DNA from: Psammoneis japonica
Taxonomy: Eukaryota
Assembly: GCA_008632985.1 (NCBI GenBank)
Contig: QPGO01000024.1
Span: 186,001-250,000, forward strand
Length of the DNA: 64,000 bases
Direction of reading: 5' to 3'
The notes beneath the pieces are model-generated. The model ran no database searches and was not told the DNA's origin. It worked only from the letters and a program-made list of their open reading frames with translations. Within the stretch, counting starts at the first letter, position 1. Each line of letters opens with the position of its first letter. Position numbers and translations under genes: made by a program. This document shows positions 1 through 59,039 of the stretch, piece after piece.

Positions 1-345
1 TTGAAAACAGCAACATTGTGGTTGCTCATGTGTGCAAGGAAGCGATTTGGTGTGGAGATTTGCGCAAGTGAGTGCTGGCTGCCTCGCCAAATGCACGTGC
101 AGCAGCACAGCTGGAGAGTCAGCTGTGTTGTGCTCCTCTCGAGAAGGATCACATTCAAGAAAATCACATCAAAGGACTGGGACTCAGTTCTGCTGGTCAG
201 ACAATTTGCACAATGCCAACACTCTCTTGTCATGCCGAAAGACACCGTGCTGGCATTTGAGTCAGCAGTCTCAACTCTCTCCAGGTGCTGCAAGCGAGCT
301 CGCGTGAAGCGTGAAGAACGACGGGCACGCTCAGCGCTCAGCGCT
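1..345. repeat. End of a TpA-depleted degenerate repeat relic (unclassified)
   Basis: No TA dinucleotide seen in about 345 bp; TG/CA-rich; its ORFs lack Tyr. Confidence 0.55.
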
Positions 346-827
346 CAGCTCTACTCTGGGGGCCCTAGAGCTAGCCACCAGAGATAAGCACCAAATCAAA
401 ATTCTACTGCCACTTTCCACTTTGGACTTCCGATTTCCGATTCACGACGGACGACGGAAAAATTGAACTTTCGCGCGCAGCGCGAACTTTCGGCGAAAGT
501 TGCCCCCTTTTGGAGCGCGAAGCGCTCCAACTTTCGGCTGAAAGTTGGGAAACGGAGGGGGCGCGCGGAGGAAAAAAAGTTCGTCCGTTGAATCTTGGCT
601 GTGAATCGTGAGAGTGCGTTAAGTCGTGCGTCAAGTCGTGCGTTGAGTCGTCTTGAAATTTGAAAAAAAATCAAAAATCAATCGAAACACGAAAGCTCAC
701 GCGATGAGCGATGGAAACATGTTACCGTCGCACGCGAATCCTCATACGGAAGGCCTTTTCTCCTACTGTACTGTGGAGGATACTGTAGAGAAGTTTCCTG
801 AATACCCAAAGTGCAGTGGATGGCAGA

Positions 828-1454
828 ATGGTTAAGAAGCGAAGTTTTGAGGGAGGAACTGCCGACGACGCAATAGTTGTAGACAGCGCAAGCGACGACG
901 AAGGTGGAAAAGACTTTGAGAGTGTGGCTATTGCTCCAAACCTACCGGCATCATCAAGATTTGGCAGTGCTGGCAAAGGTGAACCATCAAGGAAGAAGAA
1001 ACGAGGGCGTCCTCGAAAGATCCGATCGCCCAAATTCTCCATCTCGGACACGCCCATATTTTCATACACCGGATCTTCCATTGAATTTGACGTTGTCGGA
1101 AAGCCAATGCCAAAGTCAAGACCAAAGCATGGGTGGAATGGAAATGTTTACAATCCAAACCAAGCTGATGAGAAAGAGTTTGCAAGTGTAGCATCAGATC
1201 TCTGCCGATCAAGACTAGATTCAGTACCAAAGTTCCGTGACGGTGTGTTGTTGAAGGCTCGGATTGAATTTACTTTTCCTGGGAAGAGTCTCAAGGATAC
1301 AGGAGACATTGACAATCTCTGTAAGTTTGTTTTGGACAGCTTAAACACAGCATTGTATCAAGATGATTGGCAAGTGTCACACTTATCGGCGAAAAAGGTA
1401 CTTGCTTCGTCCGAATCTGCCGGACGTACAGCAGTCGAATTGAAGCAAATTTGA
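828..1454 (+). CDS. rusA: RusA-family Holliday junction resolvase with an N-terminal AT-hook-like motif
   Basis: GDIDNLCKFVLDSLNTALYQDDWQV matches the RusA D-x-DN-x-x-K...D...DD-x-QV signature; PMPKSRP near the domain start; KKRGRPRK AT-hook-like; first ATG at 828, true start uncertain. Confidence 0.85.
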   Translation: MVKKRSFEGGTADDAIVVDSASDDEGGKDFESVAIAPNLPASSRFGSAGKGEPSRKKKRGRPRKIRSPKFSISDTPIFSYTGSSIEFDVVGKPMPKSRPKHGWNGNVYNPNQADEKEFASVASDLCRSRLDSVPKFRDGVLLKARIEFTFPGKSLKDTGDIDNLCKFVLDSLNTALYQDDWQVSHLSAKKVLASSESAGRTAVELKQI

Positions 1455-1841
1455 AACAAATAATTCCACACGATTATAACAAGCACTGTATCACCTACTC
1501 ACTTGACGTGTGCCTAGAGTAGTCATGTTTTATTTTAGCCCACTTGTGTCGTGAGACAAGCACTTGCTTCGTCTGAATCGGCTGGACGCACGGTCGTCTC
1601 TCTGAACCAAATTTGAAATAGATAGTATATTATTTCACTTGGCATGTGCTATACCTTACTTTGGTGCACTTCTTTGACTGGCAAGTTGTGGAGCCGTCGG
1701 CATGAAAAGTATACATTTTTCGTCTGAATAGATCGGACGCATGACAATCTGGCGGACGCAAAATCTGGAGTCGTTGCACCGCACCAAATTTGAAATGCAC
1801 AGTTCTACAAGCTTCTGTTGGCACAGTAACACACAATTACT

Positions 1842-4418
1842 TTACACACATTTTACTTTCACCCAATTCTTTGCATGTGGGTTCACGGGTTTTTTCGGAC
1901 TAGTTCCAGAAGCTTTGGATACAACCTTTTTCACAAACCCTACCAAGACGCTCGTTCGCTGCTCGCCGATGGTTGATATGTTCTGATTCTTCTTGTACGC
2001 TATAACTCGAGCACCTAGACCTATGAAGGTAGGCTGTGCTCTTCCCTTCTTCTTGTTATCCAGGGGGCTCTTCATGCCAGCGTCTTCTTCCATCTTTCTC
2101 ATTTTTTGCAGGCAAGTGTTTTGCACGGCGTAACAAACATTGTGGAATTCGACGGATGCATGGTCATGAATACGTATCGTATGCCACTGGTCTTCCGTCA
2201 TGACGTGTTCTAGGAGCTCCATAGCTGCTTTAAACTTCTGTGGCTCTGCTTCACTGTTTGGAAACTTGAGGTGCAAAAGCCGCTCCTTGGATGACGAAGA
2301 AAGGTGTCCATGCTGCTTGAAGAAACTTAGGCATACATGCAGAGAGATTTTTGCGCCTGTACTGTTTACCAAGCCATCCACTTGCTCCTGCAATGTCAGT
2401 TTCTTTTTCTTTTTGTTTGAAAACTTCTTACTCACAACTCCGGCCGAGAACAGTGTCGCGACAGCGGGAGGTCGTTGCTTTCGCGTGGAGGCCGTGACAG
2501 GCTGAGTCGCAGTGGCTGACTCGTCAGAATCCACACGACGTCGAGAAGCAGCCGGCGCGTCACCATCATCAGTAGTAGTAGCATCAGCATCTGGTGGGCT
2601 TACAGCATAGGCAGCCACATTGTTGTTTTGAGTGGAGCCGGCGTTTTCATCAATAACGTTGCACTCGATGCCGCCGTCTCGATTGGATATTTTTTCGTCC
2701 GCAAAATCCGTCGTGCTATCTTCCTCCTCCGATGATAGGAGTTCAATATTCCTTTTCTTACTGGACTGATTGGCCTCAAGCTGAGCCATCTCCAAGTTGC
2801 GAATCGCGTGGGCTTGCTCGGAAAGCTCGGTACGTTGTGCATCACACACTGATAATACACGAGACAGTAGCTCATTCTGCTGCTTTATCTGTAAAGCAAG
2901 GTTGATGTCACTTGAAAGATCCGGGTTGCGGTCTTGAAAGCTAGCGTCTATTTTCTTTCCCCAGATCCGAAGCACTTGTGAGGTGTCAGCCGTGTCACCA
3001 TCACGAATCTTCGCTTCTGCTGCAGCACGCTCCAACGTGTACACGATTTGATGGTTTTGACGAAGCTCCTTCGAAACTTCAGCGTGATGCCGAATCATAC
3101 TAGCCGTGCAAGAACGCAAGAAGGGACGCAGCTCCCCTCCTTTCAGAAATTGAGCAAGAGAGTCAGAGATCATATACAATTTTTCAATGAGACGTTCAAC
3201 ATCATCTTGTACATGGCTCCCAAGGCATTCCAAGTTTGGAGCAAATTTCTTGCCGGCAGTATCATCCCAGCCCATCATCGCGTTTGCCGCTGGAAGAGTG
3301 AGCTGCGGTGTAATTCGTTTGTAAGTCTTGCCATTGGCAGCTCCGGGCGCCCATCCAACTCGAGCGTCCGCTTCTTCAACTGACACTCCTCGATGCGAAT
3401 TCAAGAATGTAGCCATACCAACTCGAATAGACTTAGAAGAATAATCGTTCTGTAGAACCGGGTTGACCTTGCTTCGAATAATAGACGTCAACTTAGCGGC
3501 AACATACTTGTCGCTCACGCTCCACAAGTCTGGAAAAGTGTACTTGTGGAGCTCCTTCTCCATGCTGTCTGGACGATAGAGACCTTTCTCACAAGAATAG
3601 AAACACGCGAAAGCATGGTAGAGATCAAAGAGATAAGACTTTTTGTTTGGTGGGAAGAGGAGTCCATACAAATCCACAGTCTTCGGCTCACACCACGTTG
3701 CTTCCAAATTCTCATAAAATAAATCCCAGAACCATTCATCATACCGTTGATACCTCACTTCCCCTCCACGTCCAGCAGCCATAGCACCCATCAAAATCCA
3801 GCAACGCTGCTGAAGAGGGCCATTATTCATCATTGGATAATTGCATTGCAGAACAAGAGCAAGAAGCAACGTCTCGATGTCGTTTGCGAATGCACCGTTC
3901 TCGCGTCTCAACATTGAATTTCTGTCAGACGTAAGAATAGTATTTCGCTGCTTGGCTCGAACATATTCTGAAGACACGTTTGGAACCAGGGGCAAAGTCC
4001 TTTTGTCAGAATACTCCATGCTGAGGAGGTTGGCTTTATCAGTGGCCTTTGCCACATCTTTGAACAGAGGCTTGTGCCACTTGTCCTCATCTTCCCAGTC
4101 AGGGTGCTTGGGGAACTTCATTTTTAGCGCTTCTTTGACCTTTCCAAAAATTCGCTGCTTTCCGTCAATTCCTACTAGCCCGTTGGAGGGATTGTCATGC
4201 CGACAGATGGGCTCATCCGACAAGAACTTGCTGAAGCGCATCATAAGTGTCCTGAGGTGGTATCCATCCACATGACGTTCCTCCAATCCGTGAAACGGCT
4301 TGTCTTGTTTTTTGTCTTGAAACGCGTCAAACGTTTTGATTGCAGACTTATCGCCACTTATGGTAGAAGGGGCCCTAGACGCCTTCATGATTGGCGCCTC
4401 AAGGGTCGAAGTGGGCAT
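1842..4418 (-). CDS. Tyrosine recombinase-like protein (Crypton/Ndc10-like), 858 aa
   Basis: Motifs in tyrosine-recombinase order: AAGRGGEV (R), YSSKSIRVG (HxxR box with K for H), ARVGW, then KTY (candidate catalytic Tyr); intact intronless ORF. Confidence 0.75.
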   Translation of the reverse strand: MPTSTLEAPIMKASRAPSTISGDKSAIKTFDAFQDKKQDKPFHGLEERHVDGYHLRTLMMRFSKFLSDEPICRHDNPSNGLVGIDGKQRIFGKVKEALKMKFPKHPDWEDEDKWHKPLFKDVAKATDKANLLSMEYSDKRTLPLVPNVSSEYVRAKQRNTILTSDRNSMLRRENGAFANDIETLLLALVLQCNYPMMNNGPLQQRCWILMGAMAAGRGGEVRYQRYDEWFWDLFYENLEATWCEPKTVDLYGLLFPPNKKSYLFDLYHAFACFYSCEKGLYRPDSMEKELHKYTFPDLWSVSDKYVAAKLTSIIRSKVNPVLQNDYSSKSIRVGMATFLNSHRGVSVEEADARVGWAPGAANGKTYKRITPQLTLPAANAMMGWDDTAGKKFAPNLECLGSHVQDDVERLIEKLYMISDSLAQFLKGGELRPFLRSCTASMIRHHAEVSKELRQNHQIVYTLERAAAEAKIRDGDTADTSQVLRIWGKKIDASFQDRNPDLSSDINLALQIKQQNELLSRVLSVCDAQRTELSEQAHAIRNLEMAQLEANQSSKKRNIELLSSEEEDSTTDFADEKISNRDGGIECNVIDENAGSTQNNNVAAYAVSPPDADATTTDDGDAPAASRRRVDSDESATATQPVTASTRKQRPPAVATLFSAGVVSKKFSNKKKKKLTLQEQVDGLVNSTGAKISLHVCLSFFKQHGHLSSSSKERLLHLKFPNSEAEPQKFKAAMELLEHVMTEDQWHTIRIHDHASVEFHNVCYAVQNTCLQKMRKMEEDAGMKSPLDNKKKGRAQPTFIGLGARVIAYKKNQNISTIGEQRTSVLVGFVKKVVSKASGTSPKKPVNPHAKNWVKVKCV

Positions 4419-4885
4419 GCTGCACGGCTGCTCTGTTGTTGCGGGTGGCTTCTGTGACAGCTGTGTGGCTGCGTCTGCTTTTTTGTGAGACGATATCTCC
4501 TCCGTGCCGTGTCTCTAGTCTCGAACTTTAGCACGGTATCGCAGAAGTCTTGCGGGTGGTGGTGAATCTGATGATGTAAAAATTCTGGCGCGTTTCAAGG
4601 TTATGTGTGTATACAGACATGTGATGTTATATTTACATCAACTTTCAGAGAACTTTCGGGTTACTTCTTCTGAAAGTTGCCAAATCTATTCCGGAAAAAA
4701 CATGAGACGACCGACGACCACAGGATAGACTCTAACAGAAAATAGATGGACAAAACTACTAAGCTATTGGGCGATTCCTCATCAGTTCTGTTGAGTCACA
4801 AAAAGGCAAAGGAAACACTACGACTTCTTTACACAGTTTTGTGGGTGGTACAGCTGAACCGGTTTGACGTTCCATAAAACCGAAG

Positions 4886-7708
4886 ATGTTGCGGATAGCA
4901 AGTCGCACAGCATCTTCCGGATGGAGAGTAGCCGGGTGCAAAAACGTCACTTCAAGGGTACTGGTGGGTAAGAACACATCGCTGTTGTCAATCAGAAGTC
5001 TCAATTGGTCCAGACGTCGCACCGTTGTGGCTGCTGCTCAGACGGAAATTCCGGAGAGGGATAAGATGTATGCCGGGGACGATGAGACGCTTCGACGTCT
5101 GACTTATATGCGCAATGTGGGGGTGTTTGCCCATGTGGATGCTGGTAAAACGACAGTGACGGAGCGTATGTTGGCTTTGGCAGGGGTGGTAAGACGGGCT
5201 GGAACTGTCGATGATGGGAACACTGTGACAGATTACTTGCCTCAAGAACGAGAACGCGGAATCACAATACAAAGTGCTGCGATTTCGTTTGAATGGGGAT
5301 GGCATAATAACAGAGCTACTAGCAACAAACAACAACAAGATGAAGCGAATGATCTTGTTCAGATACATTTGATTGACACTCCTGGTCACGTTGATTTCTC
5401 TGTTGAAGTCAACCGAAGTGTCGCCGTTCTGGACGGCGCTGTGCTGGTTGTAGATGCCGTTGCTGGTGTTCAAGCACAAACAGAAACGGTTTGGAGAGCA
5501 ATGACTCGACCATCCATCAATAATCATGATGACTCAGCGGCGAAACCCTCCATCACTTTCAGGGATCATGGTCACGAGCCACTTCCATGCCTTGCACTTG
5601 TAAACAAGATGGACAAGGATGGATGTAACTTCGGTAGTGCGATCGATTCCCTAAGACAAAAACTGCCAGGGGCCAACCCTATTGCAATACAGATGCCGCT
5701 TTTTCGTGGTTGTGGGAAGATTGGATCGGGTAGCAAACTCATCAGCAAATCTGTTGTAGCGATACCGGTTGAGGAAGCGGCTTCAACATCTGGGGAGTTT
5801 GCGGGCGTTGTGGACCTCATTCACATGCGAGCCATCATATGGCCTGATACTCCTTCGATGAAAGGGATGGTAGCGGACGTTGAACAGTGTGTACCAGATA
5901 TTGTGCCTCTCATTCACAGCGATACTCAGGAACCAATCGACCCCAATTGTCATGTCACGGTTAAAGCGCTGGCAGCGCGGGCAGAGTTCGTAGCTTCTCT
6001 CGCTGATGTCGACAGCTTCATTGAAGACTACTTTCTCGCCGATGAGGAACCCAGCAACACAGAACTTCGTCTTGCTCTTCGACGCGCAACACTAGAAAGA
6101 AAAGCGCTTCCTGTCATGGCTGGCGCCGCACTTAGAGGTAAAGGAATTGAACCAGTGTTGGACGCCGTGGCCGATCTGCTTCCTTCTCCACTTGATCGCG
6201 TGCCGCCAGCGCTCAATAGATACGCGACAGGCGATAGCAGAGCAGTTAGTCTGAATAGATCAGCATTAGAAGAGAAATCCTTGCCGTCGATACAAGACGT
6301 GACTCTCGGCCATCCGTTGCACTCATCTCTTTTGGCACTTGCGTTTAAAGTTGTGCATATGAAAGGCAGAGGCGGTAGCGGAGACGGACGCGTTGTTTTT
6401 GCCCGTGTTTATTCGGGGCAGATCTCAGCGAGAGACACAGTCCAAGTGGTTTCACCACCCGCACCAGGAGAAGCGCCAGAGAAACCGCGAACCGAAAGGG
6501 TGGGCGGAATGCTAGAACTCGCAGGAGGACGGTTCAACAATACGGAGGATGGCTTTTGCAATAGTGGCGATGTGTGTGCTCTTGTTGGACTCAAGAGTGT
6601 TGTCACTGGTGATACGATCATCTCGACATTGGATAATTCCGATAGGCGAAAAAAGAAAGAGAAAAAGAAAGATAAAGGTTGCATCCTTTATCTAGCTGGG
6701 GTTGCGTCGCCTAAACCGGTTCTCAAGGTTCGGCTGGAAGCTGAAACTGCAGAAGAACAGGCTCGTCTCTCAGACGCTTTATCACTCCTCGCGATCGAGG
6801 ACCCGAGTCTAAGTGTAGAAGAGACCGATTCGGCGACTCTACTCTCTGGTTTGGGTGAGCTGCACATTGAAGTCGCTCTCGATAGGCTACAAAGAGAATT
6901 TGGGCTTCGAGTATCTGCCGGATCACCGTTAGTCGCGTACCGAGAAACCGTCAGAGACGTAATGGAGACGCCCGGCGGAACTCTATTGGAGTACGACCGA
7001 ACAATCGGAGGTACACGTATGCAAGCTGCAGTTCATCTTGTGTTGGAGCCTTTGAAACGCAGCAGCGCATCAGATGCAACGTCCACTGGCTGTTCTCCAT
7101 CGGTTCTTTTGTCGGAACCGGTGGTTGAGGTGGGACTCCGCGCCCGTGATTTTCTAGGTGTGGACGAAGATACTCCGGAGGACGACTTAATCCACAGATG
7201 CGAGGTTTTTAAGGCGCTTGTCTCTGGATGTCAAGGGGCACTGAAGCGTGGGCCACTTGCATCTTATCCCATGGCCAGTCTCAAATGCAACGTTGTTGAC
7301 GTAGACGCGGAGGGCGGTCTAGCAGCACTGCGAGACATGCCAGGTTCCTTGCGCGCCGCATCAGCCCACGCAGTTGCGGACACATTGTCTAGAAATGCAC
7401 ATGATGGTTGCACTGTTCTGGAACCCACCATGAGTGTGGAAGTGACGCTTCCTGCTGAAATGGTAGGAAGCGTTCTGTCTGATTTAACCAGTCGTCGCGC
7501 CACCGTAGGCGATGTTATTGTGGGAGAGAACAAGGGAGAGGATTCCTCGGCTTCTCGCCACCAGAAAGCACTAGTGCGTGGCCAAGTCCCTCTGTCCGAA
7601 ATTCTTGGCTATGCCAGTATCTTACGGAGCATTACTGCAGGGGAAGGATCCTTCACGGCCGAGTACCACGGGCACTCCCCTTGCGACATCGCTTTCCTCA
7701 AACACTAA
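4886..7708 (+). CDS. GFM2: Elongation factor G family GTPase, probably mitochondrial EF-G2 (ribosome-releasing factor 2)
   Basis: AHVDAGKT, ERERGITIQSAA, DTPGHVDF, NKMD, GLGELHIE, LEP; Arg/Ser-rich N-terminal transit-like peptide. Confidence 0.8.
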   Translation: MLRIASRTASSGWRVAGCKNVTSRVLVGKNTSLLSIRSLNWSRRRTVVAAAQTEIPERDKMYAGDDETLRRLTYMRNVGVFAHVDAGKTTVTERMLALAGVVRRAGTVDDGNTVTDYLPQERERGITIQSAAISFEWGWHNNRATSNKQQQDEANDLVQIHLIDTPGHVDFSVEVNRSVAVLDGAVLVVDAVAGVQAQTETVWRAMTRPSINNHDDSAAKPSITFRDHGHEPLPCLALVNKMDKDGCNFGSAIDSLRQKLPGANPIAIQMPLFRGCGKIGSGSKLISKSVVAIPVEEAASTSGEFAGVVDLIHMRAIIWPDTPSMKGMVADVEQCVPDIVPLIHSDTQEPIDPNCHVTVKALAARAEFVASLADVDSFIEDYFLADEEPSNTELRLALRRATLERKALPVMAGAALRGKGIEPVLDAVADLLPSPLDRVPPALNRYATGDSRAVSLNRSALEEKSLPSIQDVTLGHPLHSSLLALAFKVVHMKGRGGSGDGRVVFARVYSGQISARDTVQVVSPPAPGEAPEKPRTERVGGMLELAGGRFNNTEDGFCNSGDVCALVGLKSVVTGDTIISTLDNSDRRKKKEKKKDKGCILYLAGVASPKPVLKVRLEAETAEEQARLSDALSLLAIEDPSLSVEETDSATLLSGLGELHIEVALDRLQREFGLRVSAGSPLVAYRETVRDVMETPGGTLLEYDRTIGGTRMQAAVHLVLEPLKRSSASDATSTGCSPSVLLSEPVVEVGLRARDFLGVDEDTPEDDLIHRCEVFKALVSGCQGALKRGPLASYPMASLKCNVVDVDAEGGLAALRDMPGSLRAASAHAVADTLSRNAHDGCTVLEPTMSVEVTLPAEMVGSVLSDLTSRRATVGDVIVGENKGEDSSASRHQKALVRGQVPLSEILGYASILRSITAGEGSFTAEYHGHSPCDIAFLKH

Positions 7709-8149
7709 CAGCATACGTGGTGTACAAGGTAAAAAACACATAGAAAGATATAGTTCATGAATATTGTATCCTAAAATTGTGTTAAGTTGGATCGGAGCAA
7801 ACGTCGAATTCATCGTGTAATTATTTCAAGCTTGCACTGATCTCTTCCTCCGCCATGGCGGACTCAGCAGTCAGCAGCGACGTTGGAATATCGCATGATG
7901 GCGCGATACACGATGCAGGTGTGCAGTAGGCTGATATGAAGTGCAAAAGGCAACAGGACGGCGGCAGTGACCAAGCAATTCCATTCAGCGTCTTTGGATT
8001 GATGGTTGATGGCTGTGCGAATGATGAATGACACCGGCGCGGTATTTTTTCGGTATCTTTCGGCGTGTTGGCGGCATAGACAGTACCGGTACGCATGAGG
8101 AACGTCCCAACGAAAGAGCGGGAATGTGAATCCGATCCTAGACCTGTCT

Positions 8150-9510
8150 TTGTTGTTCTTGAGGCAGCAAACAAACAAATTCTTCTGGCATCCGACGAGG
8201 CATGCCTCCAGCCATGCAAACTGACACCGGTGCAGAAGCACGATGAAATCTCTGTCAATGCTGTTGCTGTCTCTCTGTGTGATCGCAGCTCCGGCGCGTG
8301 CTCATGCCAATGCAACATTCTAGTCCTATGACTTGTCTGTCACAATTTGCTTGTCACAGTCAGTCAAGCCGGATGAAATGCCTCACTACGAGTCTTCTCG
8401 GTTTGACAACGGCTCCATGATTGGTTCGATTTTGCACAAGAAAACGACGCTGCTGTACGGCGTACACACGTTTGGCTTGTGCCTCGTGCGTGCCTCACAA
8501 CCCCGGATGGACCGAGAGCGGCGTCGGTCTCGCGTCCGAGTTTGGTGCAGGAGGCATGGAGCCTTTGTAACTTACGGTGTGGGTGGCATGGAGTGTCAGA
8601 CGTCTCCAATGGAGTGCTGGGATGCATTGAAGCAAAGAATGGCGAGCCGTTTCTCATCTCTCCACGTAGAAATTTTCACGCAGTGATGGACTGTTGGTTG
8701 AAATCCCCAATGCAAGAGAGTCCGCCACCAGCAGCGCGAACAATGACACCCAACAACTGCAACTCCTCATGTTGATGACACCTCTTCAAGGTCTCCTTCA
8801 AACTCTTGATGCATTCTCCTGGACTGAAATTCTTCTCATCTATCAGTGGCTCCTGACTTTGATGCAGCTGGGGAGGAAACCATGGACTTGGTCCATGAGA
8901 CTGCGTCTTTGAGCGACGTTTTCAGAAAATGTTCCTTCCAATTTTTTAGAGTCATCTGGTTGGCGACTCGCCTTCGTTTGACAGTGTCACAGTCCTTCGC
9001 CACATCAAACAGAGGAGTGGTGCCAATGCAATTCGAAGAAGATTCTAAACTGCTTGCTGCCTCATGACAGAGGTCGGGACATGGACTTTGACGTCCTTGA
9101 GGGTCCACACTTTGACAACACTTTCGTTGGTTGCACAAACACTCAACTTTCCTTTGCTCGCCATGTCCTCGCACAAGTCACACAAAGGGGCCACCACAGC
9201 ATTGTTTCTTGACAAATGCTGGTCAACGGTGGTCGACTGAAAGGTGAGTCCACATGGCTTGTTGGGATCTAACTTTGTTTCTTTTTTCTGCTTCGCGTGC
9301 AACGCTCTCTCGGCTGGCCGACAATGCAGGGGAACAACGAAGAACGCAGGTGCCTTGGACTTTGGACTGGTTGAAATCCCCGAACCACAACTTGCGAAAC
9401 AAGCAAGAGAGCGAGAGCCCGCCACCTCGCTTGCTCGGATGGAAAATGCTCCCATTCCTCAAAAGCAAAAAAATAAAAGGGGCTCGGGTTTTGCTCGGGT
9501 CCAGAATTTT
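8150..9510. repeat. Partially TpA-depleted degenerate sequence, probable TE relic
   Basis: Reduced TA content; Tyr-poor, Cys/His-rich broken ORFs; repeated GCTCGG near 9433-9500. Confidence 0.4.
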
Positions 9511-16374: not shown

Positions 16375-17921
16375 CTATTTGTCACCCCCATCTTTGTTTT
16401 GCAGCGGTAGTACCGAGTTGACTTTTTCCTCCAGCGCCGACCCTCCGGCCTCGGGTTCCACTTCACATTGCACTCCAACCTGCATTGCGCAAAGCAAAAG
16501 AAAAACTTCACAATTAGTCACGAAGGATGACTCACCAGCCGGTGCAGCGACACAAACAGTACAAGACCATACTTACGAAATTTACAATGCAATTGTCTGC
16601 GTCTCTTAGAGCAGCGACAAAGAACTGATTCCAAAACGGCGTTCCATCTGCCTTGTAATTGAGGATGCAGGTCGTAGCATCCGAGCCGTTTGCAATGGCT
16701 GTTCGAATGATATCCACCGCTCTGGGGTCGGTACCAGGCCCCTGTAAGAATCGACAGTTTCTACCTAGGACTTCTTCTCGACTGTATCCAGTCAGTGCAT
16801 AAAATCCTTCACTTGCGTAAACAATAGGGTTATCAGGGAGACGCGGGTCGGACAAAACAAAGTTCTGCTGCCCAGACGTGAGACTCGAGATGAGACTGAA
16901 ATCCGATTTGACAAGTTCGGTTTGCTTCTGATGATCGGTCTTCGGAATCGGCTTGCCGGTTTCGACATCGGTGAAGAGCGGATTTTTTGCACAACACTCT
17001 GATATTATTTGCTGTGCGTGCTGCGGAATCTTCTCCTGCACCACCATGCGAAGCTCGACGTTCTCCTTCTGCAACTGGCGGACCTGTTCCTGGAGCGACT
17101 CCAACATAAACTTCTTCCGCACTCTGCTACGCTTTGCATGCTCGCGATTGCGCTGACGACGTTCAGCAACAGCTTGCTCCGACATTCCTGGGGCCTGCAT
17201 GCCCCCAGGCATGCCACCCCACATCATGTACTGGTTCTGATCAGCGGGTCGAACGCTTTGCTGTGCCGTTGCAGGGGCGACGCCTCCAACCCCACCAAGC
17301 CGAATACCTACCCCAACAGGAAGCGGAACGTTACCTGGAGGAGCTGCCGGTCCGGGAGGTGGTTGAGCGGCTCCAGTCTGAGGAACGGCAAGCTGCCCAC
17401 CGACCATCTGAAAGCCAAGACGTCCAGAAACTCCCTTTCCCTGGGTTGCACCGTCGACCCTAGCTTTCTTTTGAGAGGGTTCCATCGTCTGCGTCTGATA
17501 CTGCTGTTGTTGCTGCTGCTGTGGCACGGCCGTGCCATTTCCAACGCCAGCTGCCGGAGCAGCATGCCATGCGGTCTTGATACCTCCCGTTGGAAGAACG
17601 GGCGCCGGTGCCTGTTGCGCCGCGGCTTCAACTTGCTGCTGTTTTTGCGCTAAAGCAACTGCTGCAGCAGCCCCACTGTAATTCCCCATCGATCCCGTAT
17701 AGGCACTTAGAGGATCATCAAACTCACTGGCAAAGTAATCCGCAAAGATTTCATTCAAATCAATGTCATCACCGAGCTGATTATTCGTCCCCTGCGACAC
17801 GGGGGCAAACATGGGCTGCTGAAAAGCTGTTGAAGCGTACGGAAAATAAGAAAGACTAAGGTACCCCTTTTAATAAAAAACAACATGATGTTCCAATCCA
17901 ACGAAAACTTACCGTTTGCAT
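16375..17921 (-). CDS. AUREO: Aureochrome blue-light bZIP-LOV transcription factor, likely AUREO2-type (predicted exons 17921-17913, 17818-16577, 16479-16375)
   Basis: bZIP ERRQRNREHAKRSRVRKK followed by LOV DNPIVYAS..GRNCRFLQG..NYKADGTPFWN; splicing completes NF|VGVQCEV. Confidence 0.95.
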
Positions 17922-22416: not shown

Positions 22417-24351
22417 AACGGAGAATATGGCTACCAACAGGCAGCGCCGGAGAAACTAGAGACGTCGTTACCTGATGATTCAAAGGCCCCCCCCGCTCTA
22501 CCAGAAGGGTGGACAGAGTATTTCGATGCCGGGAGTGGACAACCGTACTACTACAATGCCGCTGATGGCACGACAACATGGGATCGCCCTGTTGTTGAGT
22601 CCTCCGATACTGCTTTTGAGCAAAAGGAGGAGAGCATGCCGTCGTCGCCGGACGGACCAGAAACACCTCCTACCGAAGAGCAGGAAACAGATGCGAAGCC
22701 ACAGGAACACGAAAAACCTGCGATGGTTGCCGATGAGATGCCCCCCAACGAAAACAGATTGGCTGAGAGCGCATCCTATGAGGGTCATGGAGAAAAGCAG
22801 CGACAATTGCAGCAGCCTGAAGTACTCGAGGAAATCCCGATTGATCAGGTACCGCACGATGCATTTGACGGCAGACAGCAGCAGCGGCAAGAGCAGCCTT
22901 GGGGCATCTCACGACAGAATGCAAACCAGCACGAGCCTTGGGGAGTAAAACGTCAAGAACTGCCGCATGACCCAAGATGGGGGGCTCCTAAACAGGACAG
23001 CGACACCTCTTCTCCGCCGATTCAACAAAGGGGTCCCCCAGGGGATAGGCAGCAGTGGCCTTCTGCCGCAGATCCTTCCCAAAAGGAAAAGGAAGAGGGC
23101 GTCAGCAAGCCTTGGGCAGGAGCTGGCGAGGGTGCTCCAGAAGGAGTAGAATCTCGTCCTACATGGGGGGAAGAGAAGTCAGCTCACGCAAACCCGCACT
23201 CTGTCTTTCAACAGCGGCAGCAATCGCAGGAGGTACCACAAGCGGACGCGCAGCCTGCACTTTGGCAATTACCTCGTCAGCAAGGTATAGACCAGGAGCA
23301 GAAGCCGCCACGACAACCGCAGCTGCAGCAGCCGCAGCAGCAACAAGATCCACAACAGCAACAGCAGCAACAACTTTCTCATCAGAGATCACCGGAGCTT
23401 CAGCAACGACGTCCACTGACGCAACAACATCATGTGCAGCAAATGCCACAGGAACAGCAAAAACATTACCCTCACTTTCAACAACAGCAACCAGGGTATG
23501 GCCAATATGGTACTCCGCCGGGACAGTCTGGGCAGTATGGACAATATGGCGGACCACCTCCTGGACAGTATGGCCATCCAGGCCAATATGGAGGCCCGCC
23601 CGGATACGGTCAACAGCATATGCAGCAGAATCAGTTGGTTGACCAGTCAAAAGCTGGTAGTGGTGCCGTAAAGGAGGCTCTCGGGAATGCTTGGAGTGGC
23701 ATTCTGGGGTTTCGAAACAAGACAAAGGAGGTGGTAGGGCAGGCGAAGGATACAGTTGTATCAAGCGCGGCAGCTGCTGGCCAGTCCATCAGCACGAAAA
23801 GTACCGGTACGATGCAACGAAAGCCATGACGTAACGGTGGTTGCGATATCGTATCTCAACTTGTTTGCTCTTCCGCGCTTAATCAAACAGGTATTTTTGA
23901 ACAGGCAAAATCGACTCTCGGATCTGTCTTTGAGTCCAACCAAGAGAAGAAGCCTCCTTATTCTTTGTCAGGGCACCAGTCTGGGCCACCTGGATATGGC
24001 CGCCCTCCACCTCAACAAGGCTATCCGCCACAACAGTATGGTGGTTATCCTCCTGGCTATGGTCCGCCACAAGCTCGAGGCGATCCTTCATATCCACACA
24101 TGCCGACGCATGCGCAGAGTCAGCCACCCATGCAGAGTCAGTATGGTGGAGCTCCTCAAGGATATCCACCCCAGATGTATCCCCCGAGACAGCAGTCTCA
24201 ACCTGGGGGACCGCCTAACCCTTCTCAGCCCGATACTCAGACAGCGCAACCAGGACATCCCCATCAGCCTCAACAGGTTCCTCCCCAAAACCAGAGGCAG
24301 AACCAGGAGAGAGATGCTTGGCAGCACCCCGGATTATCTGGAGACTACTAG
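22210..24351 (+). CDS. Gln/Pro-rich WW-domain protein with signal-peptide-like N-terminus (exons 22210-23806, 23891-24351)
   Basis: LPEGWTEYFDAGSGQPYYYNAADGTTTWDRP WW domain; polyQ; GQY and PPGY repeats; GT-AG intron. Confidence 0.85.
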
Positions 24352-26726
24352 CTGTGTCGCTAAGGCACGCGCATTCTTTTCTGAAGCCGGAGCAACCCCG
24401 CAAAAGGACGTCACTTTTTCTTAACGAATGCTATTTACAAACATATCTTCAGGTCTCATCGATAGATCATGCTAAGAAAATACCTCATTCTCATCTTACA
24501 TCGTTGTCAAAGTGACACTTATATCGGCTTAGAACTTGTCCTCCCACTGGAAGTCGTTGCTTTTCTTCCTTGATTCCGACCCGCCACATAAGCGCACTCG
24601 TGTCACGCGTGAAGGGCAGGTGGGAATGCCAAGCCACTAGCTCTGTCTCACGCCGGCTGTGTTCCTCAAATGTCTGTGATGCACCAGTGGCACAGAACTC
24701 ATGACACACTTTAGCTGGGCCTTCCTGGGAAAGACTGGGAACTCATTCATCCTACCATCATGGAGTTCTGAGGGTCATCATCACTTTCAGCCGACTGACT
24801 GAGTGGACAAACAACTTGATGGGTCCACAAAGAACTCTGCCACTTGACAAGAGGCATCTCAAATGTTGTGATTCATTGTGTGGTGAGGCAACCAAAAAGA
24901 TTCAGTGGGCTGTGAACTCACCAAATCTCAGAGTTTGGTGTGCAGTTGATGCATCATTCTTGTGCAACAGAAAATCACAGAATGCAACTGCTTGGCAAGA
25001 GGCATGTCACATGATGCTGTGGTGGCTCCACATGACAAGGCAACCAACTGAAAAGATTTAGAGGTGAGTTGCAGAGTTCAACATGGTGTTTGTTGCTTTC
25101 ACCTTGACCAGACCACTTTCCTGAAATTAAGAAAAAGAAACAAATGACTGTGGCAGGAGCCCCTCCAGTTTTCAAACTGCTGTTCTTTTCATTGGCAAAA
25201 ACCAGAGCAAGGTTGCAGCAGCAGTTGTGACCAGACATCATGTGCTGCAAAGGTGAGAGATGGAACCTCACTTTAGATCAGCACGCAGCAACACGCAACA
25301 TCAAAAACAACTCATCACACACCTGCTTGCACAAGCTCCACCCACTTGCTCTGCTGGCATGCACAAATGTGGTTGCCAGAGATCAAGACAGCCAGAACAA
25401 GCTGATGGGGGATGTGCAAAAGTTGAAACAAGAGAAATGTCTGTGGACAATGTCAAGACAAGTGCCTGGCATTGGATTGAGTCACCTCTTAAAACAAGAA
25501 GTGGAAGAAGAGCACCCTCTTGACAACTTCACTCAGTGCTTGTGCAGCTGATCAAAAGCAAAAGGCTGTGCAGAGCACACAGCACAAGGCACAAGGCATA
25601 AAAGCAATGCCTTGCTGCATGTTTGCCAGGCATCTGCTGCTGCTGATGCCAACTTTGGCTGGCCTTGACATCCTCCTGTGTGCGTTCTTGCCCACAGGAT
25701 GATCGGCTGGTCTGTGCTGGGGGAGTGTGCAAGCCACCAGCCTCCTGTCAGAGAGTTGTGCCATGTGCTTGGTGTCAACACAGTGGTGCCAAAAAGATGA
25801 TTTTTGCCTTCTGCGTAAACTCCCCTGCCCTCCTCACAAAAAACTCTGCCACACAAACTCTGCTGTGCCACTCACAAACTCCAGCCTGCCCTCTGTTCAC
25901 ACACTCTCCCTCAACCCACTCTCTCACACCACACAACCTCCACAAACTTTGGCGCTGTTCCCTTACAAGCTCCACCCACTTGCCCCAAACTCTGCAAGCT
26001 CATGAGCTTTGGCTGCCTGCAGACTCTGTCACTTGCTGGCTCTGTCCTCTCACAAGCTTTGCCTGTTCACAAACTCTCAGCCTGCTCACAAGCTCCTCAA
26101 CCACCAAACTGGTGCTTGCAAACATTCCACCCATTGACAGTGCTGAATGAACACCCTGTTCACGCACAAGCAACTTGTCAAGAGTGGCACTTTAGTCCTC
26201 AAAAAATGCCACACTGCCAAGAGGCCATGGCTCATGACCACAAATGGCCACCCAACAGCATCGTGCTTGCAGCTCGTGCAGCCACACCAGACAAATGGTG
26301 TTGCTCAAGATTTTCTCTGTTGTGCCACAGAACATGTGCCGTGGCGCAGCCCAAATGCAGAACATTTTGGGTGGAAAGTGGTTGGAATGGTTCAGGCAAT
26401 GGTGGGCAAGTGCTTCCAAAGAGCAAGAGATCAACAACACAACACAACTGCACTGCTGGCATCCCCTCCACCCATGGGCCAGTTCTGCCCATCTGCCCCC
26501 AGCCACAAGAGGACGTTGTGGTGGTGTGGCATGTTGGTCAACCTGCTCCCCAAGAAGAGCCAGGAGCAGGCCACAACCATGGCAGATGCGGGCAGATGCT
26601 CTTCTGGGGCCCTGGTGTCTGCAGCTGTGGGGCCCTGGTGGCTAGCTCCACCCTGGAGCGAGAGAAAGAGAGAGAGAGAGAGAGGTCACCCAGCCGCTCC
26701 ATCCATCGCGCACCAAAGGTGCATTG
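22949..26726 (+). repeat. Segmental duplication, copy 1 (about 3.78 kb)
   Basis: Colinear with 31083-34862 (offset about 8134). Confidence 0.97.
24660..26580. repeat. Old TpA-depleted repeat relic inside the duplication (unclassified)
   Basis: Very few TA or CG in either copy. Confidence 0.6.
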
Positions 26727-27226
26727 GGGTGTCCTGGCACGCGCGCTGGTTGGTTGGTTGGTTGGCTTGTGGAGGGAATCCTGAGGGAATTCTGCCAAAT
26801 TTGTCTCGCTCGCGGGAGGATGCCTCGCACAGTGTGGTTCGCAACTCAGACTTTTCAGTCTTACGGACCAGCCGCAGCCGCTGCATGAAAACACACCAAA
26901 AAAACCAACCGCAGGGGCTGCAGTAAAAATCAGTGCTCACATTCAGTCCCGGATTTCTCGTTTTTGTCGCTCCAGAAAATGACAAAAAAAAGAGCTGCGA
27001 GGTTCTGCCCAGCACCAACTGCAACATTTGTTGTGCACACGTGGCCCACTTCGACCTGCTTGACGAATGTAAATGTTCAAAATGCACATTTGTATGAGAG
27101 AAAGCGAACTGTGTCAGATTTGTCGTAGTGCCACCAACAAGCTGCCGGCACATGACGATCTGCCACCAAACTCACAAAATTTCTGGAAGGCGCAACGGTG
27201 GTGACTGAGGCCCGTTTTAATCAACC

Positions 27227-28980
27227 ATGAGTCGTCAAGCCACTGTCGGCGTCACTGCCAGGCGTCGAGCCACCGTTGCCCCGCCAGGTGGAGGAGACGA
27301 AGAACGATCCGTGCACCAACATCTCGCAAGAAGCAACTCGTCTTCTTCTGTCAGCAGCATCGAGAGTTTGCCAAACATGCCAAGAGTGTTTAACTCACCT
27401 CCACCATTCACTGACACACATTGGTCCGACGTTGACACGGATGACGAGTCTGAAGAAGGGCACAATCCTCCACCCGTTGGGGATCCGGGTGTTTGCAGTG
27501 GCAAAGACAGAGAGGGCGACAACGAATCCCTCAAATGTCGTTGCCCAATCGCTGGGCGATTTGCCACCAGAAAGCCCGTCAAATGGCTGGGTCAAGTGCA
27601 CGAAGAGCAACAGCTTGAGCAGCATTTTCAGGATTGTCGTGTTCGAAGGGGGTTGGGTGATTTTGCAGTGAATCTGCTCACTGGTGGACAAGTGCTTTCT
27701 TTGATCCATCCTGTCTGCCATGACGACACGGATCTGTGGAAAAACCAAGCCAAGATTGCCAAAAAAGGTCACATGTTGCACAAGTGTCGTCGTGAAAAAT
27801 GGCAACGCGAACAAACCGAGGGAGCACGTTTGTAAGCGGCGGATGCGGCTTCAACTGTGACGCCGACAGATGGCGCATCCGACACTGCTGCTGCCGACAC
27901 CGCTGCTGCCGTCACTCCTCATCGCAACGGCACTCAAGGCATGCCCCGACTTGGTGATTTTCTTGCAAATGATGCAGGAAAGCGGGCTTTGACTGCCATG
28001 CTTAGAGAAGCTAAGATGGCCGGCTGGGACCAATCGCTGGGGTGCGGTCGATGCACCGCTTGGCTTGCCGTCCGTCATCCTGTTTGGATCAACCGAGCAC
28101 AACGTGGCATTTTGTCTCAGTGAGCAATGTGTTGAATGCATTGTCATTTCCGTTGTGTCATTGCCATGCAATGTCTAATGTGTTGTTTGTTTTCATTTTT
28201 GTGTGATGCAGATTTCACCCATTCAGCATCGCTCTCTTGCGTCGCAAGCTGAGTGCTGCTGAAGCTCGAATTAAGGCGGATTTCTGCCAACAGGGAGCGC
28301 ATGGCACCGATGAAAGTGGCGCTGTGGGGGAAAGTGAGTTTCCCCAACATGCAACACTTTTTTGTGAGCATTTCTCCTGGGTGGAGAATCGTCCTGACGG
28401 GCCAGCAGCAACAAGAGCGCGTCAGGATGCCAGGCGCCATGTTGAAAGGAGTGCCATTGGTGCCATGGTGCCTCTTGGTGGGAGTGATCAGACTCTCTGT
28501 ACCGAGCACTCTCATTCCAATCTTGGTCCAAACCAAGATGTTGCAAGCAGGAGCATGTCATCGGATCAAACCGAGGGGACGGAAAACATTGTCACTGCCA
28601 CCACTCCTGTGGATGCTGGCACTGGTGCTGCGAGAGCGAGTGGTCAGCGACGTGTCATTCATCGTGAGAGTGTCCCATTGCCCACGGGCATTGAGAATGC
28701 CATGATGGCATCTACACAAAATCTTCAGATGGGATTTGTGGAACTGGCAAGAGCGATTTCAAGCCCCCGTCAGCCACCTCCTCGCTCCATTTCTGATGTC
28801 CGCACCGAATTCACTCGGACGCGTCGTGCTCTGAGGGAGGCAGAAGACGACAATGATGAAAGGTCTGTTGGCTTTCTCAACAGGATGTTGGACTCCCTTG
28901 ACAGGGAAATGACACAGTCTTTTTCTGGATCTGTTGGCAGTGAGCGCGGTGAAAATGCCGATGCCGAAAATGTGGAGCAG
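27227..28980 (+). pseudogene. Probable Harbinger accessory ORF2, TpA-mutated
   Basis: Coding-like frames 27227-27835 and 28237-28980 essentially without Tyr; position opposite the transposase fits the two-gene Harbinger layout. Confidence 0.5.
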
Positions 28981-29469
28981 TTTCGTTCGAGTCGCATGTG
29001 GTCGATTCGCTGCCATTGTGTGCGCTGGTTCTGGAGGATTGAATCCTCCAGCATTCGTCATGCTGTGGATTACATTGCAAATTCGAAACAACCGAGCATT
29101 AGCTTGTTGTCGTGTGCACTGATTCTGGAGGATTGGATCCTCCAAGATTCATCATGCTGCAGATGGTTGAGCGCACCGTTGTTTGCAATGGCAAAATGGT
29201 GACCATGGAACCCTTTCAAAAAATGTTGACACATCTGTTTAGCACATTCCTGCAGCAGACACACAAAACCTTGTCAGTGTTGTTCGCATCACACTTGACG
29301 ACACGACATGAACGACATGATGTGATGCCGGCACAATGTTGCGCAATTCCATGTGACACGACAGGATGCGTGCCGGCACAATGCAGTGCAACTCAATTCC
29401 TGCTAGACACACAAAAACACATCAGTGTTGTTTGTGTCATGCTTTGTGATGTGATGACAGCTGAAGAAA

Positions 29470-31005
29470 AAGCAAAGCCATTTTAAAAAAGAAAACTGTG
29501 GAAATTGGCATGTGTTGCCAAGATCCACCTGGGGCGCCGCCTCCAGGATCTCATCAAGCGGCAAGTGCGACTCGATGGAGGGAGGCAGCAACTCGAACAT
29601 GCTGCACACCGACGAGCCATTAAAACATGTGCAGCAGTTCATCAAGAAAAAAGACACAATGCACATTTTTAGTTTCTTGGGACCCGAGTTGTACAGCCAA
29701 AGCATGTCCCTGTCAAGAAAGACACGAAACAAATTGATGCGATTCGCGAGCAAGTGCTCGATGGACTCATGCATCGCCGCCATGCGGTGATTCAGATGTT
29801 CTTCTTCAGCCGTTGCATGGTTGAATTGTCCAAGCATTGTAGGGAGCAACTGAAAGATTGCGGCTGCACAAAGTGCAGGGAAATGGCCTCCCATGCGAGG
29901 CAGAATCCTCTCAAGGCACTCGCTCAAACCACTCAAATTAAGCATGCCATTGTCATTGACACTCAGTGTGGCCCCAAAGACACTTCCCATCATCCCATTG
30001 GAAAAAAGAACAACTTGAAACTTTAGTCCATGGGCTCAAAAGTGTCTGCTGTAGAATGCATGCTGGATGTCCACAATAATGTCAAACACTCGCCTTGCCT
30101 CGTCACCTGGTCTGGGAGTCTCCAATCCGCAGTCATCAATGAAGCCGAACATGCGCTGGTGCTCAAATTCCAAATGTGCAAAAACAAACTCACCCCTTCT
30201 TAAGCCATTGTCATGTTGAACTTCCTCTCGAGTTGCTCTAGAAACCAACCGGCGCCAGATTGCATGCCTGAATTCGTCAATGTGTGGCACCCACGCATCC
30301 ACAGATTTTCCAGATGTCTTGTGGTAGAACGTGTTGTGCAAGTGATCAATGAAACAGTCCATCGCCCAAGACCACCTTCTGGGGTCACCACCAAATCGTT
30401 CTGGTGTCATTCGAGTCCACTTGTCCCCCCGTCATCATCTTGCTCAGACAAACAACAAAAATCTCTTCACTCGTAAGAACACAGCAATTCGCAACCCTGA
30501 CGCGACCTTCTGGAAAGCGAAGATGGCGATGCAACAGCCTTAGCTGAGCCTTTGTAAGCCGAGTCCATTCACAGCAATTGGTCTCAGACAACGAATCGAT
30601 TGTCCGGTTTCTCACTGGTGTTCTTTCAGGAGGCGGTCAGTTGCGTGTTGAGCTCGTCACGCATTCACGCCATCCTGCAAGGCAGCTTGTGGTCAGTCCA
30701 AAATAGAGCTGAAGCACCGCAAACACAAAGAAAAGAACTTGGTCAATGACATCATTGCTTGAAAGGATGTCATCGCCACCCCAGAAAACCAAAGCAATGA
30801 TGGCTGCAATTCGGGCAATCAATTCCTGCGTCGTCGTAAAGTTGAAATAAAAGAGACGTCTCAACAGTAGAACGGTGAGGACATCACGTTGAGACAGGGC
30901 ATCATGCCGATGCCTCCAGTTCGTGCGCCGATGCACATTGCGATGAATGATGTGATCGTCAGCATCTTCTCGGTGTCGACGCCGAGAGCGCCTTTGCCGA
31001 GGCAT
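29470..31005 (-). pseudogene. PIF/Harbinger DDE transposase pseudogene
   Basis: MFGFIDDC, QHAFYS, HGLKFQVVLFPNGMMGSVFG, NDNGMLNLSGL, LNHRMAAMHESIEH; frameshifts and stops. Confidence 0.8.
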
Positions 31006-31082
31006 GCGGCACGTAAGAGGTGACGAAAACAACACCGTTGCGAATGTTTGATGTGATTCATTTTTTTTTGTGACCATCGAGG

Positions 31083-51620: not shown

Positions 51621-51799
51621 TCAGCTAGTCTGACGTCAGCATCGACTCGAAAAAAAAAAGAAGCGAAGCAAGTGCCGGTACATACTGTATTATAGTAGGG
51701 CCTACGAGCGACCGACGACGGCGCACAAGTCCCTTGCCCAATGCGATGCGTCACCTCGTCTCTCGATACCAACAAGACGAATGATAATCTCCGTATGAT

Positions 51800-55728: not shown

Positions 55729-56412
55729 ACTTCTGTCAATACCGGTGCGATTTGATGCGAGTATTGTTCACTTGTCAAAGCTGTCTATTCCGACTGATTT
55801 CTTTTCGGATTCCGATGGCTTTGCTATTTAGACAACTTGACAACCAAGAGACGCTACTTGTGGGTGCATTCGTTGTGTAATTGGTTTCAAAACCAGGAGG
55901 TTTGATGATGAAGAGCGAGGTTACTGTAGTGCTTTTGTGGGTTCGTTCGCAGCTTTCGGTTTCGTACTCCTCCTTTGACAACAGGCAGCAACGTTGAAAA
56001 AATCGTCACTGCTTTGTGCAACCACTATTCTCGTCCCTTAAATGAAATTGCACGATGACGTCAACTCAATTTGAAATGTTAAATACATGTAATGACGTAC
56101 TTAGACGTGTCTCTGACCTCAATGTTTGCGAGGCGGGTGGGTGTGCCTGCTTCCTCACGAGTTTCACAGATGATAGGGAGGTCTTCTGTTGTGATGTCAT
56201 GGATACTTAAATAAAAGCGAAAGTGACAGGCAACAACGCACTTCTCATCTTTCTGTCGTCAGCCGCTCAGTCAGCAACTGTCACTCGTTTTCCGACAACG
56301 TTAAATGAAAGAAACGTGCGTTAAATGAACGTCATTATTATTTGAATGGCAAGTTGAAGTGAGCTTGCGGCGTCGCGCACAGCCATGTCCGTCCGTGCGT
56401 GATCGAACGGTG

Positions 56413-56453
<41 letters not shown>

Positions 56454-56454
56454 G
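56413..56454 (+). repeat. (TGTC)10 microsatellite
   Basis: Read directly from the sequence. Confidence 0.95.
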
Positions 56455-59031: not shown

Positions 59032-59039
59032 GAAGGAAG

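Follow-up and report, generated by a model that had tools for sequence, protein, structure and literature searches.

What is a Holliday-junction resolvase of the phage and bacterial type doing beside a tyrosine recombinase (YR) in a nuclear genome? The question is raised by 64,000 nucleotides (nt) of Psammoneis japonica DNA (contig QPGO01000024.1, positions 186,001 to 250,000; hereafter the window, to which all coordinates refer), in which an intact open reading frame (ORF) of 858 amino acids (aa) at 1842-4418 (-) converges on a 212-aa ORF at 816-1454 (+). This arrangement was reported in a first-pass annotation of the letters alone, and it was confirmed: the smaller ORF matches the Pfam family RusA (PF05866) with an E value of 3.4e-11 and 44.3 bits against a cut-off of 22.8, and the larger ORF encodes a predicted tyrosine recombinase. 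The two genes constitute a repeated unit of about 4.2 kilobases (kb) that is very likely a mobile element of the Crypton type; the fuller statement, that it represents a young family of DNA transposons of the Crypton (tyrosine-recombinase) kind with two converging genes, is probable. A recombinase and a junction resolvase, with catalytic residues complete in both, are amplified and inherited together. That RusA acts on the Holliday junction made by its neighbor is a well-motivated but tentative proposal, to which we would give somewhat less than an even chance.

The larger protein was not recognizable by ordinary sequence comparison: it matches no Pfam family, and a phmmer search of the sequences of the PDB returned nothing meaningful. 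An AlphaFold (AF2) model of residues 1-520 (predicted local distance difference test score, pLDDT, 82.9) was compared by VIA-align with 48,161 representative PDB chains. The top match was Flp (Z 13.9, 238 aligned residues, root-mean-square deviation 4.1, over model residues 135-444), and the best 12 rows comprised Flp, three of Ndc10 (Z 12.8-11.7), Cre (Z 11.1) and, at Z 10.1-8.6, integrases of phage, Xer, integron and Tn1549 origin, among them Brujita Int (Z 10.1) and an archaeal Xer (Z 10.0); QRICH1 matched at Z 5.5. The N-terminal domain resembles the N-terminal domains of integrases 3nrw (Z 7.0) and 3lys (Z 6.1), and Cre, XerH and the integron integrase align with the model from residues 4-8 on. 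With Foldseek, the best 22 listed rows were Cre, Tre or Flp at probabilities of 0.72-1.00, with E values of at least 3.8e-3 throughout. As modelled, the 858-aa protein is of the tyrosine-recombinase fold that the first reading had assigned to it, and it has the catalytic residues.

A word-based search identified 16 relatives of this protein, 24-53% identical and mostly full length. All 17 YR sequences share R217, E220, K246, R332 and Y366, and position 356 is tryptophan in 14 and histidine in the three most distant. In the AF2 model, strands 237-244 and 249-255 form a beta-hairpin with K246 in its turn. The catalytic residues are spaced much as in Cre (R-29-K, R-24-W and W-10-Y). Flp of the yeast 2-micron plasmid and Cre are thus alike to the YR in being its best structural matches, with tryptophan at the fifth catalytic position and lysine in the hairpin, but they have only 10-12% sequence identity to it; the YR far exceeds them in size, having in addition a predicted coiled coil and a further domain at the C terminus, and it probably belongs to a dispersed transposon rather than to a plasmid or phage system.

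Beyond the catalytic domain, a second model contains a disordered, acidic, serine-rich linker at residues 573-674. The VIA-align list for the C-terminal half was filled by matches to the coiled-coil helix (best Z 6.5), and the best Foldseek E value was 1.1; neither listing gave the helical domain at 675-836 a clear structural counterpart. A profile search of 1.84 billion cluster representatives returned 2385 relatives at E values up to 1e-3 and 373 at up to 1e-30, mostly of 750-900 aa and covering the whole profile. A Pfam scan of 30 of the relatives (27 members from the profile search and three distant ones) found a real family in none; the clade is large yet has no Pfam model, so that genome annotation currently misses it. 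Its neighbors in the ESM Atlas are hypothetical proteins of oomycetes and diatoms, followed by clusters of NDC10_II/GCR1_C, DUF3435 and DUF3504 (Crypton-derived), which may serve as a lead only. No relatives of the YR were found in 2.9 million viral contigs, and none in prokaryote genomes.

The listed ORF of the smaller protein begins at a GTG codon, but translation probably starts at the ATG at 828, since relatives have their first methionine at the corresponding place in the alignment. A phmmer search of the PDB sequences with this protein gave nothing meaningful, and residues were mapped by aligning a four-sequence profile to PDB 1q8r (E 0.24, a value that was not taken as proof of family). 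In this alignment D164, D166, N167, K170, D174, D183 and D184 correspond to D70, D72, N73, K76, D80, D90 and D91 of Escherichia coli RusA. In the E. coli enzyme, cleavage is reported to depend critically on D70, D72, K76 and D90, and D91 contributes to the cation site (PMC1636454, cited here and below from the part of its text that was available). All 30 aligned RusA rows have D164, N167, K170, D183 and D184, and D166 is conserved in at least 90% of them. The likeness to RusA of the E. coli prophage DLP12 and of lambdoid and other phages (1q8r, 2h8c; PMC1636454) thus consists of the Pfam family and the active site D-x-D-N-x-x-K ... D-D, from which dimeric, magnesium-dependent junction cutting is predicted here as well.

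In contrast to the phage enzyme, the protein is encoded by an element of a eukaryotic nucleus and is extended at its N terminus by about 90 residues, in which an acidic stretch accompanies the sequence KKKRGRPRKIR (residues 59-69). The AT-hook-like motif noticed at first pass is the RGRPR within it, at residues 63-67, and 19 of 24 aligned close relatives have the core [RK]GRP[RK], which all six distant RusA rows lack. A profile search identified 64 relatives, of which about 28 are close (E <1e-29); PF05866 was matched by 62 of the 64, and some had been named RusA-like resolvases by their source. RusA was located in viral contigs at 63 loci, with 24-67% identity over the best segment and 24-36% over full-domain matches, and the motif D[IV]DNLCKF together with a RusA relative was located at two weak loci among 185,579 prokaryote species genomes. 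Three other RusA-domain proteins, P0048 of Skeletonema marinoi, P0053 from an MMETSP transcript and P0071 of Seminavis robusta, lack the AT-hook and have a different N-terminus, and have in common with the RusA of the element the core DxDNLCKF...DDxQV; these may be host resolvases or domesticated copies.

If the two genes belong to one element, one would expect them to be found together elsewhere. A metagenome scan with 11 closer YR sequences yielded two contigs, L001 and L002. In both, a YR (35-36% identity) and a RusA gene (45% identity; E 1e-35 and 1e-37) converge in the order seen in the window, which bears out the linkage for one family. As a control, this YR was found at none of 65 other RusA-bearing loci (63 viral, two bacterial). 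The YR gene of L001 (361-2700) is interrupted by two in-frame TGA codons and that of L002 (228-2003) by a different TGA and a frameshift; by their sequences, L001 and L002 are two different dead copies. All three stop codons are at positions where relatives have arginine, which would fit deamination of CpG (C to T) in CGA codons of silenced repeats. Outside the genes, window 454-526 is 80% identical to L002 3133-3205 over 75 nt, so that the pair and its end block are kept in a relative with only 35-45% protein identity.

Amplification within one genome was examined in three public runs (X1, X2 and X3) from one sample, none of them recorded as RNA, by placing their contigs on window positions 1-9000; contig depth in these runs is not the same as copy number. 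In X1, the flanks have depths of 56 (1-483), 65.3 (4652-8519) and 57.8 (8498-8902), and near-identical contigs inside the unit have depths of 314.5 (531-976), 266.3 (1386-2327) and 360.1 (2502-3260); within approximately 454-4690 the depth is 4-6 times that of the flanks. Sequence identical to the window is present inside the unit at a depth of about 53-79, near the level of a single copy, and at position 1447 another letter accounts for 266.3 of 318.9. Diverged contigs with 45-50 differences have depths of 59.3 and 33.9, and 86 of the 219 placed contigs are less than 95% alike to the window. One contig has 38 other letters in place of 3019-4236 (1218 nt of the recombinase gene) and is likely a non-autonomous internal-deletion derivative of the element. 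Such a pattern is characteristic of a repeat family that is young, here with some five near-identical members and a few diverged older ones. A single-copy host locus is at odds with inner depths of 266-360 against 56-65 in the flanks, and with the diverged and deleted copies. Of the descriptions offered at first pass, "young" fits the near-identical copies and "low-copy" is roughly right for X1.

No other free ORF of 80 or more aa is present in the unit according to the ORF list, and the only Pfam match in the two proteins is RusA; neither has a Pfam match to reverse transcriptase or RNase H, and there is no third ORF. A repeat check of window 1-6000 found no long direct or inverted repeats. 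The observed/expected ratio of the dinucleotide TpA is 0.45-0.54 across 1-6000, resembling gene-rich parts of the window, and drops to 0.02-0.17 around 26-34 kb, 48-52 kb and 56-64 kb, so that the earlier remark on the unit's normal TpA content holds.

The borders of the unit proved to lie elsewhere than first proposed. The motif CCAAATC is present at 391 and 4680 as stated, but its role as a border is unsupported: the + strand of the window has eight occurrences, chance alone would give zones of roughly 100 and 60 nt about 0.4 shared 7-mers, and position 391 is within the contig of single-copy depth, 1-483. That contig is expected to overrun the border by about 30 nt (assembly words being of 31 letters), which places the border at about 454, and similarity to the L001/L002 family begins at 454 as well, with ACGGAAAAATTGA. 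The left border being nearer 454 than 391, the empty site predicted earlier, ...AGATAAGCA-CCAAATC-TATTCCGG..., is not supported either. Better borders are provided by an 8-nt direct repeat, CGGAAAAA, and by clusters of AACTTTC palindromes. Both ends carry arrays of a 7-8-nt motif, [C/G]AACTTTC, in inverted pairs, and 8 of the 20 AACTTTC/GAAAGTT sites in the 64-kb window fall within 178 nt (454-560 and 4630-4700), compared with 0.03 expected for these end zones, which were picked after looking. Perfect palindromes with arms of at least 7 nt number five in 450-560 and two in 4625-4705, compared with a mean of 0.25 in control windows of 110 nt, none of 300 of which had four or more. Folded as single-stranded DNA, the left block has a z of -3.4 (none of 200 shuffles as good) and the right block -2.65 (two of 200).

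Similar words are present at both ends of the L001/L002 family: CGGAAAAATTGAGGTTTCG on the RusA side and CCGAAAATGAGGTTTCG, near CCGAAAAAA, on the recombinase side. Directly outside both proposed borders of the window's unit are GACGAC-type repeats, as if the flanks had once been contiguous, and the predicted empty site is ...ACGGACGA-CGGAAAAA-ACATGAGACG... A loose end is that one diverged copy departs from the window after 4684, yet resembles it for about 12 letters more. The conserved part of the left block, which lies upstream of the RusA gene, also contains at 466-526 the inverted pair TTTCGCGC...GCGCGAA; we take these two sequences to resemble E2F binding sites, which suggests that the gene may be expressed in S phase.

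Among known transposons, the unit is most like the CryptonS group of oomycetes and Phaeodactylum tricornutum as described in the 2011 survey of Kojima and Jurka (PMC3212892, cited here and below from the part of its text that was available): hosts are stramenopiles, a tyrosine recombinase is present without reverse transcriptase or long terminal repeats, and elements are of a few kb and low copy number with, in some, a second gene; the short direct repeats that bound CryptonS elements have a candidate counterpart in CGGAAAAA. CryptonS-1_PTri is 4671 base pairs (bp) long and has four copies (PMC3212892, supplement file 1). In the printed alignment of that survey, the box II and tryptophan motifs SHS[IF]RRG.A and RG[AG]W resemble, by eye, SS[KR]SIR.G and ARGGW of the YR family described here. 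The differences are that the second gene of CryptonS encodes a C48 peptidase (the words RusA, resolvase and Holliday junction have no occurrences in the available part of PMC3212892), that the sequence of CryS1_PTri is visibly different, and that the histidine of box II is lysine or arginine here. The termini reported for CryptonS, TATGG in most members and CTGTAAG in the P. tricornutum element (PMC3212892), are absent from the ends of the unit: in 1-5000, TATGG occurs at 4359 only and CTGTAAG at 1319 and 2599 only, and CCATA (the reverse complement of TATGG) occurs at 1054, 2219, 3413, 3664, 3779 and 4872, none of them at an end. Direct repeats at Crypton ends are 4-7 bp, and CGGAAAAA is 8 nt, known from one copy and with a chance expectation of about 0.09. 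The element is most probably a Crypton, its likeness to named Cryptons being one of architecture and, by eye, of motifs.

The recombinase fold is common also to DIRS and Ngaro elements and to Ndc10/Cbf2, GCR1 and DUF3504 proteins (Ndc10 Z 12.8, QRICH1 Z 5.5). The unit differs from DIRS and Ngaro in having, by Pfam and ORF content, no reverse transcriptase or RNase H, and from the domesticated relatives of Cryptons (Ndc10/Cbf2, GCR1, DUF3504) in keeping the catalytic tyrosine and both arginines. Full-text searches outside Repbase and subscription journals found no literature linking RusA or any junction resolvase with Cryptons or eukaryotic tyrosine-recombinase elements. Here a nuclease of phage and bacterial type is joined to a eukaryotic, chromatin-reading AT-hook in a nuclear transposon. 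No Crypton had been studied for transposition, transcription or regulation at the time of the 2011 survey (PMC3212892, available part). A junction nuclease kept beside a junction-making recombinase offers a testable handle on the Crypton mechanism, with small proteins and short, defined candidate sites, and the intact and apparently young copy in the window may represent an element active in an alga.

How might the two enzymes work together? XerC acting with CTX phage and the integron integrase acting at attC carry out a single strand exchange, after which replication or host functions remove the junction, so recombinases of this kind can depend on outside resolution. In neither system is the junction removed by a resolvase encoded with the recombinase, and the likeness is a working analogy. 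In the element, the recombinase would bind the motif arrays and pair the two ends (or a circular form with its target), and would exchange one pair of strands within CGGAAAAA / TTCCGGAA to give a Holliday junction. The AT-hook would hold a RusA dimer on an A/T tract beside the crossover; RusA would cut the junction 5' of symmetric CC pairs, and host ligase would seal the nicks. The preferred cleavage site of RusA lies 5' of CC at the crossover point (PMC1636454). The reaction of a tyrosine recombinase is reversible, and removal of its junction by a nuclease would drive it one way, so that RusA would take the place of the directionality factors or replication used by other tyrosine recombinases. 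The strictest version, in which the YR performs the first strand exchange only, at a TTCCGGAA-type crossover, and the AT-hook-tethered RusA encoded by the element then cuts the junction, is doubtful. If it is true, transposition is a one-way process of two enzymes, a division of labor not described for any eukaryotic mobile element, and the directionality of Cryptons is explained without accessory factors.

Several observations count against this account of the element and of its resolvase. The excess depth was seen in one run only (X1), which is probably the assembly's own sample; X2 contigs inside the unit (depth 5.8-13.3) are no deeper than those outside it (4.5-14.6), and X3 gave no contig on window 1-9000. 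No contig joining both flanks, as an empty allele would, was seen among the placed run contigs, nor was an end-to-end joint of the unit. The bin 301-600 has a mean depth of 332.7, which would permit a left border anywhere in 359-525. An 8-mer shared by the two end zones is expected about 0.09 times by chance, and CGGAAAAA is weak alone; the inverted similarity of one end to the other is also weak (3 of 500 shuffles score equally), the fold z in the relative is -0.73 (L002) and -1.74 (L001), so that palindromic folding is there within chance, and the conservation of the end block could in part reflect a promoter with E2F-like sites upstream of RusA instead of a recombination site. L001 and L002 are 98.5% identical over 2855 nt and therefore count as one independent family. 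Further pairings are circumstantial: the YR and RusA proteins P0009/P0027 come from longest contigs of equal size (3467), as do P0012/P0021 (3855), which suggests shared contigs. Across the four putative pairs the identities of YR and RusA rank differently, the closest YRs being those of L001 and P0009 and the closest RusAs those of L001 and P0012.

With regard to the enzymes, position 329 of the YR, where the R-H-R-Y tetrad has histidine, is lysine or arginine in 17 of 17 sequences. Lysine in the His-II place is also a feature of type IB topoisomerases. His-II is not essential in every tyrosine recombinase, and the residue at 329 is thus no argument against YR activity. The DNA-binding residue R69 of E. 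coli RusA is not kept, its counterpart being G163. No observation made here places RusA on the junction of the recombinase; a joint fold of YR residues 135-858 with RusA scored 0.00, which is evidence neither for nor against contact.

RusA could instead be cargo of a Crypton-type transposon, a captured gene or hitch-hiker that takes no part in transposition and helps the element or its host otherwise, for example by resolving junctions that arise from ectopic recombination between copies. Classical tyrosine recombinases do not need a resolvase, and diatom RusA-domain proteins without an AT-hook (P0048, P0053 and P0071) are a possible source of such a gene. Known CryptonS elements carry unrelated second genes, namely C48 peptidases (PMC3212892), and the unlike ranking of YR and RusA identities would also be consistent with separate histories. 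This is nevertheless unlikely, since the pairing and its convergent order persist at 35% (YR) and 45% (RusA) identity, and the conservation of catalytic residues and AT-hook among 24 close RusA sequences points to selection within the element; an enzyme that cuts junctions next to one that makes them would also be a pointed coincidence.

Another view is that the unit is an integrated small circular episome (comparable to the yeast 2-micron plasmid with its Flp) or a replicon of viral descent, with free circles supplying the extra depth, the recombinase serving copy-number control or integration, and RusA acting on intermediates of replication and recombination, as phage RusA does. In favor of this view, Flp heads the structural matches (Z 13.9), the unit measures only about 4.2 kb, and of two libraries from the same sample one has the depth excess and the other does not, as if circles were lost in some preparations; the closest viral relatives of RusA are 24-36% identical over full-domain matches. 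An episome is quite improbable all the same, because the diverged contigs at single-copy-like depth (59.3 and 33.9) and the deletion derivative indicate several genomic copies, the different nonsense mutations in L001 and L002 fit dead insertions better than a maintained replicon, the unit has no replication gene among its ORFs of at least 80 aa, and the YR has no relatives in the 2.9 million viral contigs.

That the pair are neighboring non-mobile host genes, one encoding a domesticated protein of recombinase type and the other a resolvase of the host itself, would suit two intact ORFs of gene-like TpA content (unlike other repeats in the window), E2F-like sites upstream of RusA and the repeated domestication of Crypton recombinases (PMC3212892), but it is disfavored to the point of being very improbable by the depth excess, diverged copies and deletion copy in X1, by the pseudogenized copies in the relative, by the full catalytic set where domesticated DUF3504 proteins are without most of the tetrad (PMC3212892), and by the lack of an apparent conserved neighborhood around L001 and L002, which end within about 400 nt of the pair.

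The Crypton-type element preferred here is laid out in Table 1.

Table 1. Coordinates in the window of the two-gene unit, its genes, protein domains and ends.
Feature	Coordinates	Strand	Basis or remarks
Whole repeated unit, ~4.2 kb	454..4699	.	From left to right: end block, RusA, 3' repeats, YR, end block; borders approximate
Left end block	454..560	+	~73 nt conserved across families; five perfect palindromes; AACTTTC/GAAAGTT at 466, 485, 495, 529, 540
Left copy of 8-nt direct repeat CGGAAAAA	455..462	+	Possibly the crossover site or a target repeat
AT-hook-RusA gene, 208 aa from probable start ATG 828	828..1454	+	Listed ORF begins at GTG 816
AT-hook core RGRPR, residues 63-67 of 212-aa ORF	1002..1016	+	Invariant in four-sequence alignment
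RusA nuclease domain, residues 95-198	1098..1409	+	Pfam; alignment to PDB 1q8r
Three degenerate tandem copies of last 35-70 nt of RusA gene	1391..1803	+	Spaced 162 and 177 nt apart; occupy the interval from one stop codon to the other
Crypton-type tyrosine recombinase gene, 858 aa	1842..4418	-	ORF, alignment, models, profile search
Conserved all-helical C-terminal domain, residues ~675-836	1911..2396	-	Model, pLDDT >90; kept in family alignment
Long single helix, predicted coiled coil, residues 507-568 (62 residues)	2715..2900	-	Model m545c972b78d7, helix 77-138; matches coiled-coil only
YR catalytic domain, residues ~135-444	3087..4016	-	R217 (GRGGE), K246, K329-x-x-R332, W356, Y366
N-terminal helical domain, residues ~15-132	4023..4376	-	Model; resembles N-terminal DNA-binding domains of integrases
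Right end block	4639..4699	+	Inverted repeat; AACTTTC/GAAAGTT at 4640, 4651, 4672; palindrome; right CGGAAAAA
11-nt inverted repeat CAACTTTCAGA / TCTGAAAGTTG	4639-4649, 4669-4679		In right end block
Palindrome TTCCGGAA	4689-4696		In right end block; overlaps right CGGAAAAA (4692-4699)

The tandem copies that follow the RusA gene could be alternative 3' ends of the gene or products of slippage. The second copy retains the reading frame and stop codon. One public contig skips 1621-1851, and the number of 3' repeats therefore differs among copies of the element.

To the right of the element, beginning about 190 nt away, is an intron-free gene for an EF-G-like GTPase (4886-7708; GTP_EFTU, EFG_III and EFG_C domains), and the insertion is thus in the upstream region of this gene. 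Farther along, an ORF at 16532-17812 (-) combines bZIP and PAS domains in the architecture of the aureochrome light sensors, which to our knowledge are confined to photosynthetic stramenopiles, in support of a host of that group, probably a diatom. Depletion of TpA is extreme (observed/expected 0.02-0.29) in 24001-34000, 48001-52000 and 56001-64000, where CpG is depleted too (to 0.09); these blocks bear the "mutator" signature to which the first-pass annotation alluded, and contain ORFs at 26002-26784, 28237-29202, 31070-31963 and 48204-50012 that match no Pfam family.

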